Shown piece by piece: positions 1,926 through 27,325 of a stretch of DNA of 31,146 bases. The notes below the pieces were generated by a model that saw only the letters and a program-made list of their open reading frames with translations, was not told where the DNA came from and searched no databases. The translations under genes and the position numbers were made by a program. Source of the DNA: Anneissia japonica. Lineage: Eukaryota. Each line of letters begins with the position of its first letter. Positions within the stretch are counted from its first letter, which is position 1. Location: positions 3,767,837 to 3,798,982 of the forward strand of contig NW_022686322.1 of the NCBI RefSeq assembly GCF_011630105.1. Reading direction: 5' to 3'.

Positions 1926-2582
1926 TTAGGAAATTTTTTGAGAAAAGTAACACTAAGACAGTCGTACACGGCATTCTAATCTAAAGGATTAGATCGTGTT
2001 GCTAAATTGCTATGGAGTCGTGATAAATATATTTGATAATTCGTAAACATGTTTTCTGCCAAATGACTCTAATGACTGTTGTAGGTGCGATATATTATTA
2101 TATATTATTATGTTGCATATTATGTTGTCATTAATTGATTATATCAAAGAGTATAAATAGAACAAGAGAGCCAACAACGCTCATTGAGAGCGTAAAAAAA
2201 CGATACGCCCTACGCAGCTAGTGTAGGACGCCAACTAACGCTTGTATGTGTTTTATTACCCAGTACTCCACCGTGCACGTTCGGCTTATCTGTTTATCTG
2301 TTCTCCACAAGATATAGTACTTTTGTAGAGGGCGGTATTTGCGCTTGTATAAAGCTGACCTAAAGTAGATCTATGTAAACATAAGATGATAAACATAGTG
2401 TAGGGCCTATGATAGTTGCATGGAGGAAATTTTTCCCCTCCATGATAGTTGAAAGAATTTATACATACAATGCTGTGCAAATAACAATATGTGTAAGAAA
2501 AACATAATATAATGCTTGCAATAGATATTGGAGAAACCTATTTTTAATACTTTACACAAACAGCGAGTTTATTATACAAATG

Positions 2583-2668
2583 AATTATTATTATTAATAT
2601 TATTATTATTATTCATTATTATTATTATTATTATTAAAAATATATTTATCATCATCATCATCATCATT
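2583..2668. repeat. (ATT)n followed by a (CAT)n microsatellite
   Basis: Read directly from the sequence. Confidence 0.9.
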
Positions 2669-3360
2669 ATGTTTTTAGCCATTATAAATTCTCATTCCTT
2701 CTTATGCAGTTTACACAATCAAACTAATATGAATGCAAAGGTGGTCAGTATATAAGAGAGCAATATATTTTATTTGTGCCATCAAACAATTATATAGTAA
2801 ATATAATATATAAGCTATAACAATATTAATAACAACAATGACAATATTAATAACTTACGAGTAGTCATGCTCTTCTATCCATTTTTTTCCATTTTATTTA
2901 TCAAATATGATATTCAAAAAATATTAATGATAATATTAATAGTTACAATTATAATATTTTCAGATTCAATTAGCATCAATCTGTCTGCATATATAGCATA
3001 TATTCAACATAGCTTTATCAATGCTCTTAAATTCATTTTTTTAAATTTTCAAATATATTTTAAACATATTAATTGTAATAAATCAGTCGTGGGTTTGATT
3101 CCTATCTGAAACAACCGTGATTTTTTATCAAGTATTTGAATTGTACTGAGCATTTAGTACTATATAACACGTCATGTGGGCAAACATCATTTCGTGAAAT
3201 TTTATTGGAGGAAATAATAAAATTCTAGTGTAGTACTTTAATAAACATCCAATAATGGTTTCAAGCATTAGCCACATATCGTGTATGCAAAAATTCATAA
3301 CCAAGGTTTTGGAAAATCAAATTTGCTTGTTTACAAACTTTTTTACAACGATTTTTAATA

Positions 3361-3427
3361 ATAAAAATTATGATAATAATAGTAATAATAATAATAATAA
3401 TAATAAACAATAATAATAACAATAATG

Positions 3428-3488
<61 letters not shown>

Positions 3489-3510
3489 TAATAATTGTTA
3501 TTATTATAAA
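3361..3510. repeat. (TAA)n microsatellite, about 150 bp
   Basis: Read directly from the sequence. Confidence 0.9.
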
Positions 3511-4140
3511 CCAGCGTACTATGCGGTTAGACTCTTATAACTTATGCAAGAGTAAGTCAATTGAGAGAGCAGCTTAGCAGTCGGCTAATACTACTTTAGT
3601 CGGCTTTGTACTCACCGCTCTTTTTCTTTAGGGAAATGAAAGAAGGAGCAATTTGGGGTTTTTTGGCTGTTATTATAACAATTAAAAGCTGAACACCTTA
3701 ATGCCATACTGCTAGCTGTACGTCTGCACACGCGCATTGAACCGCTCATGCGTGACGTTCACCCGCGTATATGTTATACGTGCACAGAGTTTTAAAAGTT
3801 TTCTACTTACTGAGTTCATAGCGGGCGTGCTTCGATCGTGCTCTATGGTAAAAAATTAATATACAACCGTTAGTGGGCGTCCTACACAGGTGTGACGTTT
3901 TTACGAACGGGACTTTGCTCTCTTGTTCTATTTATACTCTTTGATTATATGCTCATAAATAAAATTCGCAAATACCAATGTACAGTAACTATACCAAAAG
4001 ATTGTACTTTTATTTTATCATTTAGTGACCACATGTTCACCACGAGCCTTGTTGATGCGCGCCAGCGTAATCAACAAAAACCAACACCAACTTAAGTACT
4101 ATAGTAATAAATAATAAATAGGCCTAGATATGATCTTTTC

Positions 4141-5217: not shown

Positions 5218-6180
5218 CTGCACAAGCATATTAAAGCCCCATTCCTGGCAAAACTTCATTTTTAAAGAAAAATCTGATTTCTATATACCGGTATGTTAGA
5301 AAAATTTATATTATGAAATTGCTAGTTTAACTGAATTTAGACAATTCCTAAACATGAAAAAAATGCAAAATAAGACTCAAATTTTATTTTTTGTTTCCCA
5401 ATCCATTCAAAAAATAATAGAGGATGATTTTTTTTATGTTTCATTTTGCGATAGGTCTATCGAAATATTTTAGGCACCGGAAAAATTAGCCTAGCAACAC
5501 CTCTATTTAGGTTCTGTTATCAGACATAAAAAATGGCCGACGTGTTAATTTCTGTTTCTGGTGTTATACATATATTATAATATTTTATTGGAATTATTTC
5601 AAACTTGTTAAAAAATATTAACTGAGATTTTAACAATTAAACAAACTTACCTCAAACCTAATTGATCGAACACAGTGTGCAAGATGCGCGGTACAAAAAC
5701 TAATCTCATAGGGTGGGCACACTTTATTTATTGCTCACAATTGTATCGGTGATGTAAACAGGAACAGTAAAACAGATTAATTAATATTTTTATTTAATCA
5801 TTGTGGGATGAATTAAAATATCTTATCATTAGAGTTCATGGCATTTGTGGGCAAGATAAAAAATAAAGAATGCGGCGGTTTCGCGAACGCTTGACTTCAT
5901 AAAGTATACACAAAAAGCAACTGGCGAGAGCATTCCAGCTTGTGTGATCTGCAACCTCTGAATTTGCCTACACTAGTAACGAAAAAGTCGTGGAGAAAAT
6001 GGTAATCTCCTATGAGAAATAGTCTCTACTTATCATTTTTTTTTCTCCTTTAGTGTAAATCTAAAATTCATGGCATTTTTTTTTTATGGTATATAAATAA
6101 TTAGAGTAATGCATGCAAATTGTTCTGAAAAAAACTTTTTGAAAATGAAATTTTGCCAGGAATGGGGCTTTAATGTGCAC
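5218..6180. mobile_element. Non-autonomous DNA transposon (MITE-like), about 963 bp, with 45-bp terminal inverted repeats and TA flanks (Tc1/mariner-type target-site signature)
   Basis: 5218-5263 CTGCACAAGCATATTAAAGCCCCATTCCTGGCAAAACTTCATTTTT pairs with the reverse complement of 6135-6180 (GTGCACATTAAAGCCCCATTCCTGGCAAAATTTCATTTTC). TA at 5216-5217 and 6181-6182. No ORF of 60 aa or more lies inside. Confidence 0.6.
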
Positions 6181-6279: not shown

Positions 6280-6664
6280 AAGGCAGTTCATGCAAATGAA
6301 AATAATTGTTAGGATACATAGTCAAAAATGTGTAAACAAATTGCCTAGTTAAAGTTGTCCAGGTTCAGGGTTGTACTGTAGCTGTAGAAAACTAGGGATT
6401 GGTGGTATACATTTTGAGGGTGGGTGGGTGATAACATAAACTCTAAGAGAGTGTTTTAACGATATGTGCAAGAGGGTTAATAAAGGTGGGTGGAGGGCTA
6501 TGAAATTAGCTGTAGACTGGGTGGAAAACTTCAAAGTTGGGTGGCCCCGCCCAACTCCTCCTACCATAATTACATCCCTGAAGGCAGTACATGAAAATGA
6601 AAATAATTGTTAGGATACAAAGTCAAAAAAATGTATAAACAAATTGCCCAGTTCAAGTTGTTCA
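6280..6664 (+). repeat. Tandem duplication, unit about 301 bp, 1.3 copies, ending about 110 bp upstream of the MVP ATG; the unit contains a G-rich tract and a CCCCGCCC GC box (6546-6553)
   Basis: 6280-6361 (AAGGCAGTTCATGCAAATGAAAATAATTGTTAGGATACATAGTCAAAAATGTGTAAACAAATTGCC…) recurs at 6581-6664 with about 8 differences. Confidence 0.7.
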
Positions 6665-6775
6665 CGTAAGGGCACTCATTACTACAAGGTTGAACATTCT
6701 CTTTTATTTTATTGATTTGAAAGTTAAACAAGCTTATTTTTCGCCTTTTAATATTCACAGTTTCTGGAATAAAAT

Positions 6776-10021: not shown

Positions 10022-10440
10022 ACATTTTTGATAGTAATTATTACAAATATTAATGAATAATAATATTTATTTATTAAAATTTATTACAGTAACTATTAGA
10101 GATATTAATGAATATTAACATTTATTTATATTTATATTAGTAATAATTAGAGATAATATTCAATATTAATACTTATTTATATTTATAATAGTAATTATTA
10201 GAGATAATGAATATTAATATTTATTTATTTTTACTTATAATAGTAATATTTATTTATATTTATAAAGTAATTAGAGATATTAATTAATATTTATATTTTT
10301 AATAGTAATTATTAGAGATATTGAAGAATATTAATATTTATATATTTATATTTATAATTTATTAGAGATATAAATGAATATTAATATTTATTTATTTGTA
10401 TTTATAATACTAATTATTAGAGATTAATGAATATTAATAT
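10022..10440. repeat. AT-rich minisatellite (about 55-60 bp unit, about 7 copies: …ATTAGAGATATTAATGAATATTAATATTTATTTATATTTATAATAGTAATT…) in MVP intron 4
   Basis: Repeated TTAGAGATA…GAATATTAATATTTATTTAT blocks read directly from the sequence. Confidence 0.7.
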
Positions 10441-10453
10441 TACTCCTTTACAG

Positions 10454-13970: not shown

Positions 13971-14756
13971 GTAAATAAAAGAAATACGCGCCCGATAGGT
14001 GCACGAGTATACTGCAGAAACTAGGTCAAAATTACTCTATCGGATAAGGTGCTAATCATCAGCAGTTGGTCATCTGTCAAAACATGGGACTAATTACCAA
14101 CTTCTGTATAAAACGACATTCACACTGTACTTGGCATGCCTGTAAAATGAAATGAACCTTAACACGTTCCAGTTTACAGTAAAATTCCATCAACCATAAC
14201 ACATTCCATTTTACAAAAAAATTCCACTACCACATCATAGAGTATATCTGTGCAAGCGTAGTATACTCAACAACTAATAATTGTAAGGTCACCATCAACA
14301 AGTTTCTTGAGTTTTTAATGTGATTAATTTTTATCCAGTAAGTTGTAAAATTATAGAATAATTGTTGAAATCTGAAATGTGTTACAGTTCAGGAATATAG
14401 ATTTTGTAATATGAATTTCAATCATTATTATACCATCTTGTTTCAAGTCACCATGACTATGTCAGAGGTCAAGGTATATGTCTAATTATTTTCTACATTT
14501 TATGGCTGTTGGTCTGTACAGTGTTTAATATACCCAATGCATTTTTCTTATAAATTTAAAATTGTGCAGAAAATTGCATGGAAAATAGGTGTGCAAAGCA
14601 ACATGTAATAATTGTTTGTGTGTATCAGCCCTTATTTTAAAAATTTATGTCAAAGCCTAATTATTTTTCAGCAGGGTCACACTTTATGCTTATATTGTGT
14701 CCTGATCTTCAGCATCAATGTGGAAACCCTATATTTATTATAATTGCTTTCTTCAG

Positions 14757-14968
14757 AATTCTGCCAAAATCATCCGTGCATCAGTATTTGGGTTTGACGA
14801 CAAGCAGAAGGTCCGTGATCGATTCCTGTTCCCTCAGAACAACCTGGTTATAACCAGTATTGATATCCAGTCAGTGGAACCAGTTGACCAGCGTACCAGA
14901 GACGCTTTGCAGAAGTCTGTACAACTGGCGATTGAGATCACAACCAACTCCCAGGAAGCCGCAGCCAG
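14757..14968 (+). CDS. MVP: MVP coding exon 11 ([70 protein letters not shown] + split Arg)
   Basis: Acceptor CTTCAG|AAT at 14755-14756; matches human NSARIIRTAVFGF…[48 protein letters not shown]; donor CCAG|GTCAGA at 14969; phase 2. This is the exon that is duplicated at 19390-19601. Confidence 0.88.
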
Positions 14969-15471
14969 GTCAGAGTTCAGACATGATTGTTCACTTATAT
15001 TCCATTCATATTCCAGTTTTGCTTGGTATTTCATACAGACAACATGTACACTTGCTATGCAGGGTAGAACGATGCTCTATTAACTCAGCCTCTTTATGAG
15101 GCTCAAGCTGTGGAGTTGTTTTGAGGTATGAGAAATAATTTGGGAGTCTGACAATGTTTGAAAACCAGATGCTAAGATTGGAAGGCAACCACCTGTAGCA
15201 CTGTTTACTGTTGTGGAGTGATCAACAGACTTCCTCTTGTTCAGCTAGATAATTTAACAACCATTATTCATACATGGCCTTATTCTAATCAATATATAAG
15301 CTGAAGATGTCTTTACCCTCCCAACAATCAGTTTAGAATGTATTTGCCATTTTACATAATATGTGTGTGTGAAAGTGCATGCATAATGCATTGTATATTG
15401 GCTGTCTGTCAGAGTACTACTACATTATTGAATTTTTAATTGATCTATTTGATATTGTTCGGTACATTTAG

Positions 15472-15715
15472 ACACGAAGCTGAAAGACTTGAGCAGGAGG
15501 CAAAGGGTCGTCTAGAGCGTCAAAAGATTTTGGACGAAGCTGAAGCTGAGAAAGCACGCAAGGAACTGCTGGAGCTACAGGCCAATAGTGCAGCTGTTGA
15601 GAGCACTGGACAGGCAAAGGCTGAGGCTCAGTCCCGTGCTGAGGCTGCTAGAATTGAAGGCGAGGCAGCTGTTGAGCAGGCCAAGCTGAAGGCAGAGGCT
15701 GCTAAAATTGAATCT
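15472..15715 (+). CDS. MVP: MVP coding exon 12 ([82 protein letters not shown])
   Basis: Acceptor CATTTAG|A at 15470-15471 completes Arg; matches human [80 protein letters not shown]; donor TCT|GTAAGT at 15716. Confidence 0.85.
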
Positions 15716-16000
15716 GTAAGTTAACAAAATTCTTCTAACTGGCATTTTGTCCAAGTAAGTAAAGCAGCTTAGAGCCTGCTGCACACGAGTAAACAGACTT
15801 GCAACTGAAGTTATTGTCTTGTGTGTGGTGAAATTAGGAACCTTTTGAACCTGCATGACTGGAAATAATTTCAGTAACGCTCAAAAATTGTGTTCCTTGT
15901 CAATGGCGTATTTCAAGGAGGTGCCTGGGCACCCCTACCTTTTTGTTCAAATGTGAAAAAAATAATAGAAAATGAATGGCAGTAAATGGCAAACTAAGTT

Positions 16001-16265
16001 AAAGGCCTGTTTATACTAGCAACGATAATTATAAAATGCTAAAAAGCAATTGTTCCTATAGAAAATAAAAGAAATGAAAGAGGTTTTCACAATAGCACGC
16101 TTTGATAACGATTTATCATGTGTACGATAAAAAAATATTTTCGTATACACGATAAATTGTTATCGAATCGTGCTAGTGTGAAAACTTCTTTTATTTTCTC
16201 TATGAACAATTGCTTTATAGCATTTTATCGTTATCGTTACCGTTGTAAGTATAAACAGGCCTTTA
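16001..16265. repeat. Near-perfect 265-bp palindrome (two arms of about 130 bp, no spacer) in MVP intron 12; hairpin/foldback element
   Basis: Left arm AAAGGCCTGTTTATACTAGCAACGATAATTATAAAATGCTAAAAAGCAATTGTTCC…; the right arm is its reverse complement with a few mismatches, ending …TAAACAGGCCTTTA at 16265. Confidence 0.75.
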
Positions 16266-16442
16266 CTTTATACATTAACAGGCATTAATTTGTCATTAAT
16301 ATGAACAATTCTTGTTTTTTTATTTATATATTGCTTCTACTAATCTCATAGAATTGCATTGGCTGACAACTGTTGGGTGGAATGAGTGGCTGGCTTTCGA
16401 TATGACATTATTGTGCCATAATATGAGGAAATCACAGATAAC

Positions 16443-16848
16443 ATATGTGGCAAAGACAAGCCAAATCAGTCACTCGTCGCAAAAATCGATTTTGAGTTAT
16501 TAATACAGTGTTAGAGAGTAAAATAATATATATAAAATGGTAAAAAAATCATAGTTACATGCGTTTAACCACACAGCTGTTTAAAGAACAATATATGAGA
16601 AATTAGCCATCAAAGGTTATGATTTCAGGCATTTCTCATGCAGAAACTATCTTTAAATCCTTAAAAAGTATTGTTTTAACATTGAAAATTGGGAAAATAA
16701 CAGCATGAATGATGTGTAGATATATAAAGGTTAGTTTAGTGCAATAAAATAGATTTTTAAAAATTTGACATTCCAGCATGTTTTTTGCCATTTTCTCTCA
16801 AACACGATTTGCGACGAGTGACTGGTTTGGCTTGTCTTTGCCACATAT
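16443..16848. repeat. Inverted-repeat pair (about 45 bp arms, about 325 bp spacer) in MVP intron 12; MITE-like
   Basis: 16443-16483 ATATGTGGCAAAGACAAGCCAAATCAGTCACTCGTCGCAAA equals the reverse complement of 16808-16848 (TTTGCGACGAGTGACTGGTTTGGCTTGTCTTTGCCACATAT) with 1 mismatch. Confidence 0.6.
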
Positions 16849-16925
16849 TAATTTTAGTGTGGACACAGGTTTACGTGTTACACAGTCATCAAATAACATA
16901 ACTTCATTTACATTGTATCTTACAG

Positions 16926-17237
16926 CAATCAGAACTCGAACAACTGACAGTTGCGAGAGAGGCAGAGAATAAGTACATCAGCCAGCAGAACGAGATGGAA
17001 ATCAGCAAAACTAAAGAAATGAGCGACATCGAGACGGCTAAATTCGATAGCATGGTGTCGTCCATCGGTGCAGATACCATCAGGGCCATTGCAACATCTG
17101 GACCAGAGATGCAGGTGAAGTTGCTGCAATCTCTTGGCCTCAAGTCTACCTTGATTACAGATGGTACCAGCCCCATCAACCTCTTCAATACTGCCAACGG
17201 ACTTGTTGGTGCTCTTGCGCCACCATCAAACAATTAG
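16926..17237 (+). CDS. MVP: MVP terminal coding exon 13 ([17 protein letters not shown]…[52 protein letters not shown])
   Basis: Acceptor CTTACAG|CAA at 16924-16925; matches human …[48 protein letters not shown]; stop TAG at 17235-17237. The CDS total is 2556 nt (851 aa + stop). Confidence 0.88.
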
Positions 17238-19115: not shown

Positions 19116-19153
19116 CTGTCTCTTATACACATCTAGATGTGTATAAGAGACAG
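19116..19153. other. Nextera/Tn5 mosaic-end junction adapter (ME-rev + ME-fwd), a library artifact embedded in the assembly
   Basis: Exact 19-mer CTGTCTCTTATACACATCT (19116-19134) is followed immediately by its reverse complement AGATGTGTATAAGAGACAG (19135-19153). This is the circularisation junction of Nextera mate-pair libraries, and it is not a natural metazoan sequence. Confidence 0.92.
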
Positions 19154-19775
19154 GTGTTTAATATACCCAATGCATTTTTCTTATAAATTTAAAATTGTGC
19201 AGAAAATTGCATGGAAAATAGGTGTGCAAAGCAACATGTAATAATTGTTTGTGTGTATCAGCCCTTATTTTAAAAATTTATGTCAAAGCCTAATTATTTT
19301 TCAGCAGGGTCACACTTTATGCTTATATTGTGTCCTGATCTTCAGCATCAATGTGGAAACCCTATATTTATTATAATTGCTTTCTTCAGAATTCTGCCAA
19401 AATCATCCGTGCATCAGTATTTGGGTTTGACGACAAGCAGAAGGTCCGTGATCGATTCCTGTTCCCTCAGAACAACCTGGTTATAACCAGTATTGATATC
19501 CAGTCAGTGGAACCAGTTGACCAGCGTACGAGAGACGCCTTGCAGAAGTCTGTACAACTGGCGATTGAGATCACAACCAACTCCCAGGAAGCCGCAGCCA
19601 GGTCAGAGTTCAGACATGATTGTTCACTTATATTCCATTCATATTCCAGTTTTGCTTGGTATTTCATACAGACAACATGTACACTTGCTATGCAGGGTGG
19701 AACGATGCTCTATTAACTCAGCCTCTTTATGAGGCTCAAGCTGTGGAGTTGTTTTGAGGTATGAGAAATAATTTG
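19154..19775 (+). repeat. 622-bp duplicate of MVP intron10-exon11-intron11 (copy of 14521-15142); chimeric assembly segment or haplotig fragment
   Basis: Collinear identity at a constant offset of +4633 bp. The identical ORF-track entries (14647-14853 = 19280-19486; 14718-15083 vs 19351-19716) confirm this. There are 3 substitutions (14897 C>G, 14906 T>C, 15066 A>G). The left edge is the Tn5 junction adapter, and the right edge switches abruptly to RMND1 sequence. Confidence 0.88.
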
Positions 19776-26968: not shown

Positions 26969-27325
26969 CTAGAATTTTTTAATGAAGATGCTCTTGCGAA
27001 TTCCCATACAGTTAGCTTCATCAATGTTCAATGTATTTGACTTGACATCAATGTCTTCCTCCAAGCGAAGTTGGTTGCGAATTAGGCCTTTAAGCTCCAT
27101 CTCTGCTTGTGCTAAGGTTTCTTGAAGCCGTTTAACATTTGTATCAATCTCGGCAACTTCATTGATAAGACGGTATTGGACGGGATCACGACAGAGTTCA
27201 ACATTTGGACGCGTAGTTCGGGCATCAAGTCTGGTTTCGGATAACTTCATTGGTCCAGTTTTGTCCCCAATTGCTTTCTGTAGTTTCTCGATATTTCCTT
27301 CCATGTCGCGTATTTGTCCAAGAAT
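26969..27325 (-). CDS. TEKT1: Tektin-1-like terminal coding exon 5 ([118 protein letters not shown])
   Basis: Acceptor CTCTTCAG|ATT; contains the tektin signature nonapeptide RPNVELCRD; matches human …[82 protein letters not shown]; stop TAG at 26971-26969. The total CDS is about 1209 nt (402 aa). Confidence 0.85.
   Translation of the reverse strand: [118 protein letters not shown]

Follow-up and report, generated by a model that had tools for sequence, protein, structure and literature searches.

A long palindromic sequence is found in Anneissia japonica within the last intron of a gene for the major vault protein (MVP). This raises the question of whether the palindrome is the remnant of a mobile element, a duplication that arose on the spot, a structure kept for its RNA, or an error of assembly. 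MITEs are non-coding deletion derivatives of cut-and-paste DNA transposons, range in size from tens to a few hundred bp, and are mobilised in trans by transposases that recognise their terminal inverted repeats. In one account, they are described as small, bounded by terminal inverted repeats, present in high copy number and showing a preference for genic regions (PMC5172404). The palindrome, analysed here in a stretch of 31,146 nt (the window), is probably a MITE-like insertion that is solitary, old and decayed. A MITE in an intron is common, and the element would be an ordinary passenger, another of a known kind.

Location in the MVP gene

The host intron is found at positions 15716-16925 (plus strand). 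It is 1210 nt in length with a GC content of 32%, begins with GTAAGT, ends with TTACAG and is in phase 0. It is preceded by the penultimate MVP exon (15472-15715, plus strand, encoding RHEAERLEQ...AAKIES) and followed by the last coding exon (16926-17237, plus strand, encoding QSELEQL...APPSNN), which has its stop codon at 17235-17237. When spliced, the C-terminal 185 residues match the major vault protein family (PF11978, E = 2e-84) and display 77% identity to Nematostella. The exons are spaced exactly as in L002, an environmental metatranscriptome sequence that represents a related spliced transcript. The protein match, the GT..AG boundaries and the exon spacing of this transcript confirm the original prediction that the palindrome lies in the last MVP intron. 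The element starts 285 nt past the donor site and ends approximately 660 nt before the acceptor.

Structure of the palindrome

Positions 16001-16264 form one long inverted repeat, with looser pairing that extends out to 15996-16268. The arms are ∼125-130 nt each. In the arm alignment, the left arm covers 16001-16133 and includes a 9-nt slippage duplication, and the right arm covers 16135-16264 and includes one of 6 nt. The arms are separated by 7 nt and the minimum-energy fold has a loop of 13 nt, giving a range of 7-13 nt for the centre. When the left arm is compared with the right arm in reverse complement, 112 positions match, 13 are mismatched and 16 are gapped, the gaps being accounted for by three indels of 1, 6 and 9 nt. 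Counted over aligned columns, arm identity is ∼90%; a BLAST self-alignment that includes the gaps gives 77.6%. The palindrome had been described as near-perfect with a handful of mismatches, and as having arms of ∼130 bp with essentially no loop. The palindrome and its arm length stand, but 'near-perfect' is an overstatement because 13 mismatches and three indels separate the arms, and the loop of 7-13 nt makes 'no loop' a mild overstatement as well. The element is 262 bp in length, has a GC content of 29%, and its longest stretch free of stop codons is 59 codons.

A long pre-mRNA hairpin had also been proposed, and RNA folding supports it firmly at the level of prediction. The predicted RNA fold has a free energy of -139.5 kcal/mol, compared with -45.4 +/- 4.2 kcal/mol for 200 shuffled sequences that preserve dinucleotide composition (z = -22.6); none of the 200 shuffles folds as stably as the palindrome. 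Folded as DNA, the sequence gives -89.7 kcal/mol (z = -19.0). The RNA structure contains 115 bp, eight of which are G-U pairs, in helices of 3-21 bp. The longest unbroken helix is thus 21 bp, and the terminal helix is a perfect 17 bp. An imperfect hairpin of ∼115 bp would therefore be expected in the pre-mRNA because nearly the whole length of the element is self-complementary, and it would be removed together with the intron.

Terminal repeats and flanking sequences

The ends of the element can be read in two ways. In a PIF/Harbinger reading, the element spans 16003-16262. It begins with the left terminal inverted repeat AGGCCTGTTTATAC (16003-16016, plus strand), which is perfectly complementary to the right end, the terminal inverted repeat GTATAAACAGGCCT (16249-16262, minus strand). 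The candidate target-site duplications are then TAA on the left (16000-16002) and TTA on the right (16263-16265), which differ at the middle base and do not form a direct repeat. In a reading based on a TA duplication, the element spans 16002-16263, has the ends AAGGCC...GGCCTT and is flanked by TA at 16000-16001 and at 16264-16265. These TA flanks are perfect, but TA is self-complementary and is frequent in sequence that is ∼70% AT. In either reading the terminal inverted repeats are perfect over 14-15 nt, and the ends are the best-preserved parts of the element.

A published survey describes PIF/Harbinger elements as having the terminal motif G(N)5GTT and a target duplication of 3 bp (TAA/TTA), and the consensus that it gives for one family, MtPH-E, starts with GGGCCTGTTTGRAAC (PMC2213677). 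Of the 11 bases of the MtPH-E consensus GGGCCTGTTTG, nine recur in the termini of the palindrome, AGGCCTGTTTA, although this consensus comes from a plant and the host here is an animal. The matching bases stand at the correct distance from the TWA triplet. Both ends read A-GGCCT-GTT(-TA), where the N5GTT portion fits the superfamily signature and position 1 is A and not G. A search for TWA followed by [G/A]N5GTT, and for AACN5[C/T] followed by TWA, with complementary ends, finds the element as its sole site in the window and ∼75 kb of related eukaryotic loci.

The element shares several properties with Tourist-like PIF/Harbinger MITEs such as mPing, mPIF and the Medicago MtPH elements: it is small, AT-rich and non-coding, has terminal inverted repeats and is intragenic. 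Its terminus resembles that of MtPH-E, and the triplets outside it, TAA and TTA, are the targets of this superfamily (PMC2213677). It differs from Tourist-like MITEs in that its first base is A instead of G, its two flanking triplets are unlike each other, and its complementarity is nearly full-length and not confined to ends of 14-25 bp. Stowaway-like Tc1/mariner MITEs offer a second comparison. Here the likeness consists of TA on both sides (of 16002-16263), small size, AT-richness and the ability to form a hairpin, but TA flanks are uninformative at 70% AT, and TA is its own complement. As judged from the termini and flanks, an origin from PIF/Harbinger (Tourist-like, with a TWA target) would be the most likely, and appears somewhat more likely than the alternative of Tc1/mariner (Stowaway-like, with a TA target).

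It had been suggested that the palindrome is a foldback transposon remnant. The transposon part of this proposal is the best supported of the alternatives originally offered, given the perfect terminal inverted repeats, the TA or TAA/TTA flanks, the AT-rich non-coding intronic sequence and the lack of the element in the intron of a relative. Foldback (FB) elements are similar in having long inverted arms, a short centre and no coding sequence. The arms of FB elements consist of tandem subrepeats, however, and are usually much longer. Tandem Repeats Finder detects just a 9-nt unit repeated 2.1 times and a 6-nt unit repeated 3.3 times in the arms, and a classical Foldback element was rejected. 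The palindrome is thus termed MITE-like rather than a classical Foldback because its arms have no subrepeat arrays.

Copies, relatives and the possibility of a local duplication

There is one copy of the element in the 31-kb window, whether the search uses the 15-nt terminus and tolerates three mismatches or is a sensitive BLAST with one arm. Searches outside the window were also negative, and these are weak negatives because the collections searched seem not to contain the host genome. Exact look-ups of 11 open reading frames of the window had no record, a search with the penultimate MVP exon gave no match at 100% identity, and among accessions traced in the literature SRR1810205 proved to be an environmental metatranscriptome. 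A two-terminus pattern found no homologous element in viral, metagenome and prokaryote-genome collections; its sole find was a gammaproteobacterial element, described below, that has 15 nt of terminus in common with the palindrome. In viral contigs, a search with a 17-mer yielded just two matches, both attributable to chance. At the amino acid level, neither a search of 5.8 billion proteins with an alignment of the two translated arms nor a phmmer search with translations of the element against 1.84 billion representatives revealed a protein relative; both are likewise weak negatives, with the host apparently absent. No open reading frame of an autonomous partner (DDE transposase plus Myb-like protein) is present in the 31-kb window, and no transposable element paper with the exact terminal sequence was found in a literature search.

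The single copy in the window, and the lack of others in the collections searched, are also what would be expected if the palindrome had never been mobile. A unique intron segment of ∼130 bp may have been copied in reverse orientation beside itself, for which replication template switching or fold-back repair would provide a route. Complementarity almost throughout the element, about a centre of 7-13 nt, is consistent with such an origin, and the TA or TAA/TTA flanks can equally be read as additional bases of the palindrome. Nevertheless, the termini are the best-conserved parts, with 17 perfect bp, as would be expected of ends bound by a transposase and not of a segment duplicated at random. 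They also resemble PIF/Harbinger ends and abut TWA, and similar elements bounded by inverted repeats are present nearby. A locus-specific inverted duplication is considered unlikely.

RNA-level properties

Does the hairpin itself have a function? Under this explanation, which is compatible with a MITE origin, the palindrome would be a selected RNA element that regulates MVP or other genes, either as a functional long hairpin, as a precursor of the endo-siRNA or miRNA type, or as a structure that recruits ADAR. The very stable predicted hairpin, with its z-score of -22.6, favours this possibility. In a study of the C. elegans dsRNAome, most editing-enriched dsRNAs were found in introns of protein-coding genes (PMC4408787). 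More broadly, two reports describe intronic long dsRNAs of animals as being edited by ADAR, with some overlapping endo-siRNA loci (PMC4408787; PMC5850803). An Rfam scan adds weak, generic matches to miRNA precursors. There are eight matches, all of them below threshold (13-30 bits, compared with gathering scores of 50-229), and the best, to mir-5880, scores 30.2 bits where the threshold is 97. These eight matches represent a generic hairpin likeness to miRNA-precursor models.

The shortfall of all the Rfam matches argues against a selected RNA, as do further observations. The antisense strand folds nearly as well as the sense strand (-134.0 kcal/mol), which is expected because the palindrome exists at the DNA level. 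Transition mismatches that give rise to G-U pairs number five on the sense strand and two on the antisense strand, a bias that is not significant. Finally, the orthologous intron of the closest relative compared (L010) has no conserved counterpart, and the arms are decaying by way of indels. A selected RNA element is thus improbable.

The palindrome resembles intronic long-hairpin dsRNA loci (ADAR substrates, hpRNA and endo-siRNA loci) in that a hairpin of ∼115 bp is situated in an intron of a protein-coding gene. It differs from long inverted repeats of the siRNA type in arm length: its arms are ∼130 nt, and LIRBase applies a cut-off of 400 nt, filtering out inverted repeats with shorter arms as likely MITEs (PMC8728187). 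By analogy, ADAR editing of the hairpin as a by-product is plausible because intronic long hairpins are typical substrates for ADAR hyper-editing and sometimes for Dicer. A further step would be exaptation, in which the MITE-derived hairpin is expressed as an intronic long-hairpin RNA that is hyper-edited by ADAR or diced. We regard this as very improbable. If it were true, small RNAs from the hairpin would act on other genes that carry related copies.

A gammaproteobacterial element of similar length

A structured element of ∼264 nt is found in three gammaproteobacterial contigs, at positions 5989-6252 of L005, 5116-5379 of L006 and 7131-7393 of L007. Its termini are GGGCCTGTTTATAC...GTATAAACAGGCCC. 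It has in common with the MVP intron element its length and the 15-nt terminus GGCCTGTTTATACTA; the interiors are unrelated. The predicted secondary structure, a closing stem with a pair of internal hairpins, has a free energy of -156 kcal/mol (z = -12.6). The copies in L005 and L006 adjoin open reading frames that resemble lptF/lptG, and the copy in L007, a MAG contig, adjoins a different permease open reading frame. The L007 copy has a diverged interior, yet blocks such as CCCTTCGGG are kept. No Rfam family was found for this element; a bacterial MITE is one possible identity, and a structured RNA not yet classified is another. The shared terminus GGCCTGTTTATACTA could represent an end for which, in both domains of life, there are transposases of the IS5 and PIF types that recognise it and are related to each other, a proposal that we rank as still less likely than the exaptation considered above.

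Divergence of the arms and the question of assembly

The arms differ by 13-15 substitutions. In an extended alignment, seven are transitions, four of these at CpG sites, and eight are transversions. Two of the three indels between the arms are slippage duplications detected by Tandem Repeats Finder, one in each arm. That of the left arm is a 9-nt unit, AAATAAAAG, present 2.1 times at 16063-16081, and that of the right arm is a 6-nt unit, TTATCG, present 3.3 times at 16225-16244. The differences between the arms are those of evolutionary decay in a genuine genomic palindrome.

An artefact does occur in the same assembly. At 19116-19153 there is a Nextera mate-pair junction adapter that was left untrimmed, consisting of CTGTCTCTTATACACATCT and then the same sequence in reverse complement. 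Directly after this adapter, 19154-19775 is a 622-bp duplicate of 14521-15142, a segment made up of an MVP exon with flanking sequence; the two are 99.5% identical. The adapter and the duplicate are an assembly or scaffolding artefact, and the contiguity of the sequence downstream of ∼19116 is therefore not to be trusted. The original prediction correctly placed a mate-pair artefact ∼3 kb away and reported no adapter inside the palindrome; with up to three mismatches allowed, no further adapter copies are found in the window outside 19116-19153.

The prediction had also raised the concern that the palindrome is itself such a junction. A fold-back that takes place in vitro copies a single molecule and yields identical arms. 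The real adapter junction 2.85 kb downstream, with its 99.5% duplicate, gives some reason to consider that the palindrome formed during library construction or assembly, as a mate-pair junction or by a chimeric fold-back. Between the arms, however, there are substitutions at 13-15 positions and three indels, where a fold-back would leave none, and these differences include the two slippage duplications and the four CpG transitions. In addition, the nearest adapter is more than 2.8 kb away. Because the arms have diverged and no adapter is nearby, the artefact explanation is rejected as scarcely credible, and the concern falls with it.

Other repeats and features of the window

The host intron contains another element with inverted repeats at its ends, located at 16443-16848 and separated by 180 bp from the palindrome upstream of it. 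This second element is 406 bp in length. Its 41-nt ends (ATATGTGGCAAAGACAAGCC...) are 98% complementary and its interior of ∼324 nt is non-palindromic. With TGTGGC.../...GCCACA taken as the ends, the element has TA at either flank, and the RNA fold has a z-score of -10.6. This is probably another MITE-like insertion, with termini unrelated to those of the palindrome.

Further upstream, a segment of ∼1.8 kb at 2143-3945 has 32-nt inverted repeats (97%) at its ends. It contains a nested inverted pair at 2221-2247 and 3861-3887 (93%), has TAT at both flanks and carries ATT/ATA microsatellites; possibly it is a larger non-autonomous DNA transposon. A pair of 41-nt inverted repeats at 5226-5266 and 6138-6178 (93%) surrounds a segment of ∼950 bp, and a direct repeat at 6280-6364 and 6581-6667 (88.5%) adjoins this 5226-6178 segment. 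An internally repetitive block with tandem and palindromic repeats is found in an MVP intron at 10024-10441 and has a GC content of 22%. On the minus strand, 26969-27304 is an open reading frame of 111 amino acids, which resembles a tektin exon and would point to a neighbouring minus-strand gene.

The host intron in relatives

The best exon-level matches to the penultimate MVP exon are 85-95% identical. In many assemblies, exon-level open reading frames begin with RHEAERLEQ and end with ...KIE(A/S), followed by GTAAGT. These exon boundaries are common to many relatives, and the intron position is therefore old. The closest relative among those compared is an ENA contig, L010, with 82% nucleotide identity in the exons. 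Its intron is at the same position and in the same phase (phase 0, GTAAGT..CAG) and is 506 nt in length. Nothing resembling the palindrome was found in this orthologous intron. The intron of the window is 704 nt longer, which is close to the 262 and 406 nt of its two inverted-repeat elements, and the excess fits two lineage-specific insertions. An alignment with the L010 intron reveals no empty site; the two introns are diverged to saturation.

The host intron is present in L010-L013, all of which share the position without the element, and is absent from the more distant L001, L003 and L004. L001 has an intron of its own ∼190 nt further downstream, which is missing from the window (L001 8975-8980, 9170-9396). 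The idea that the transposon insertion created the intron, as an introner-like element, draws on the three relatives that have no intron at the site, but it was rejected and is left with next to no probability, since the element lies inside an old intron whose position is conserved in L010-L013 and in the many exons ending ...KIE(A/S)|GTAAGT, and since, at its distance from the donor and acceptor, the element supplies neither splice site.

For the preferred MITE-like reading, the sequence of events would be as follows. The element would have inserted into a pre-existing MVP intron within this lineage and decayed afterwards, with the hairpin arising as a by-product.

Significance

If the MITE interpretation is correct, the palindrome represents one more decayed intronic MITE in an AT-rich animal genome. 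It is not an assembly error, which sets it apart from the adapter junction located 2.85 kb further downstream. For annotation purposes, the element is to be masked as a repeat and not entered as a miRNA. In this species it may be of use as a presence/absence marker, or as a generic ADAR substrate.
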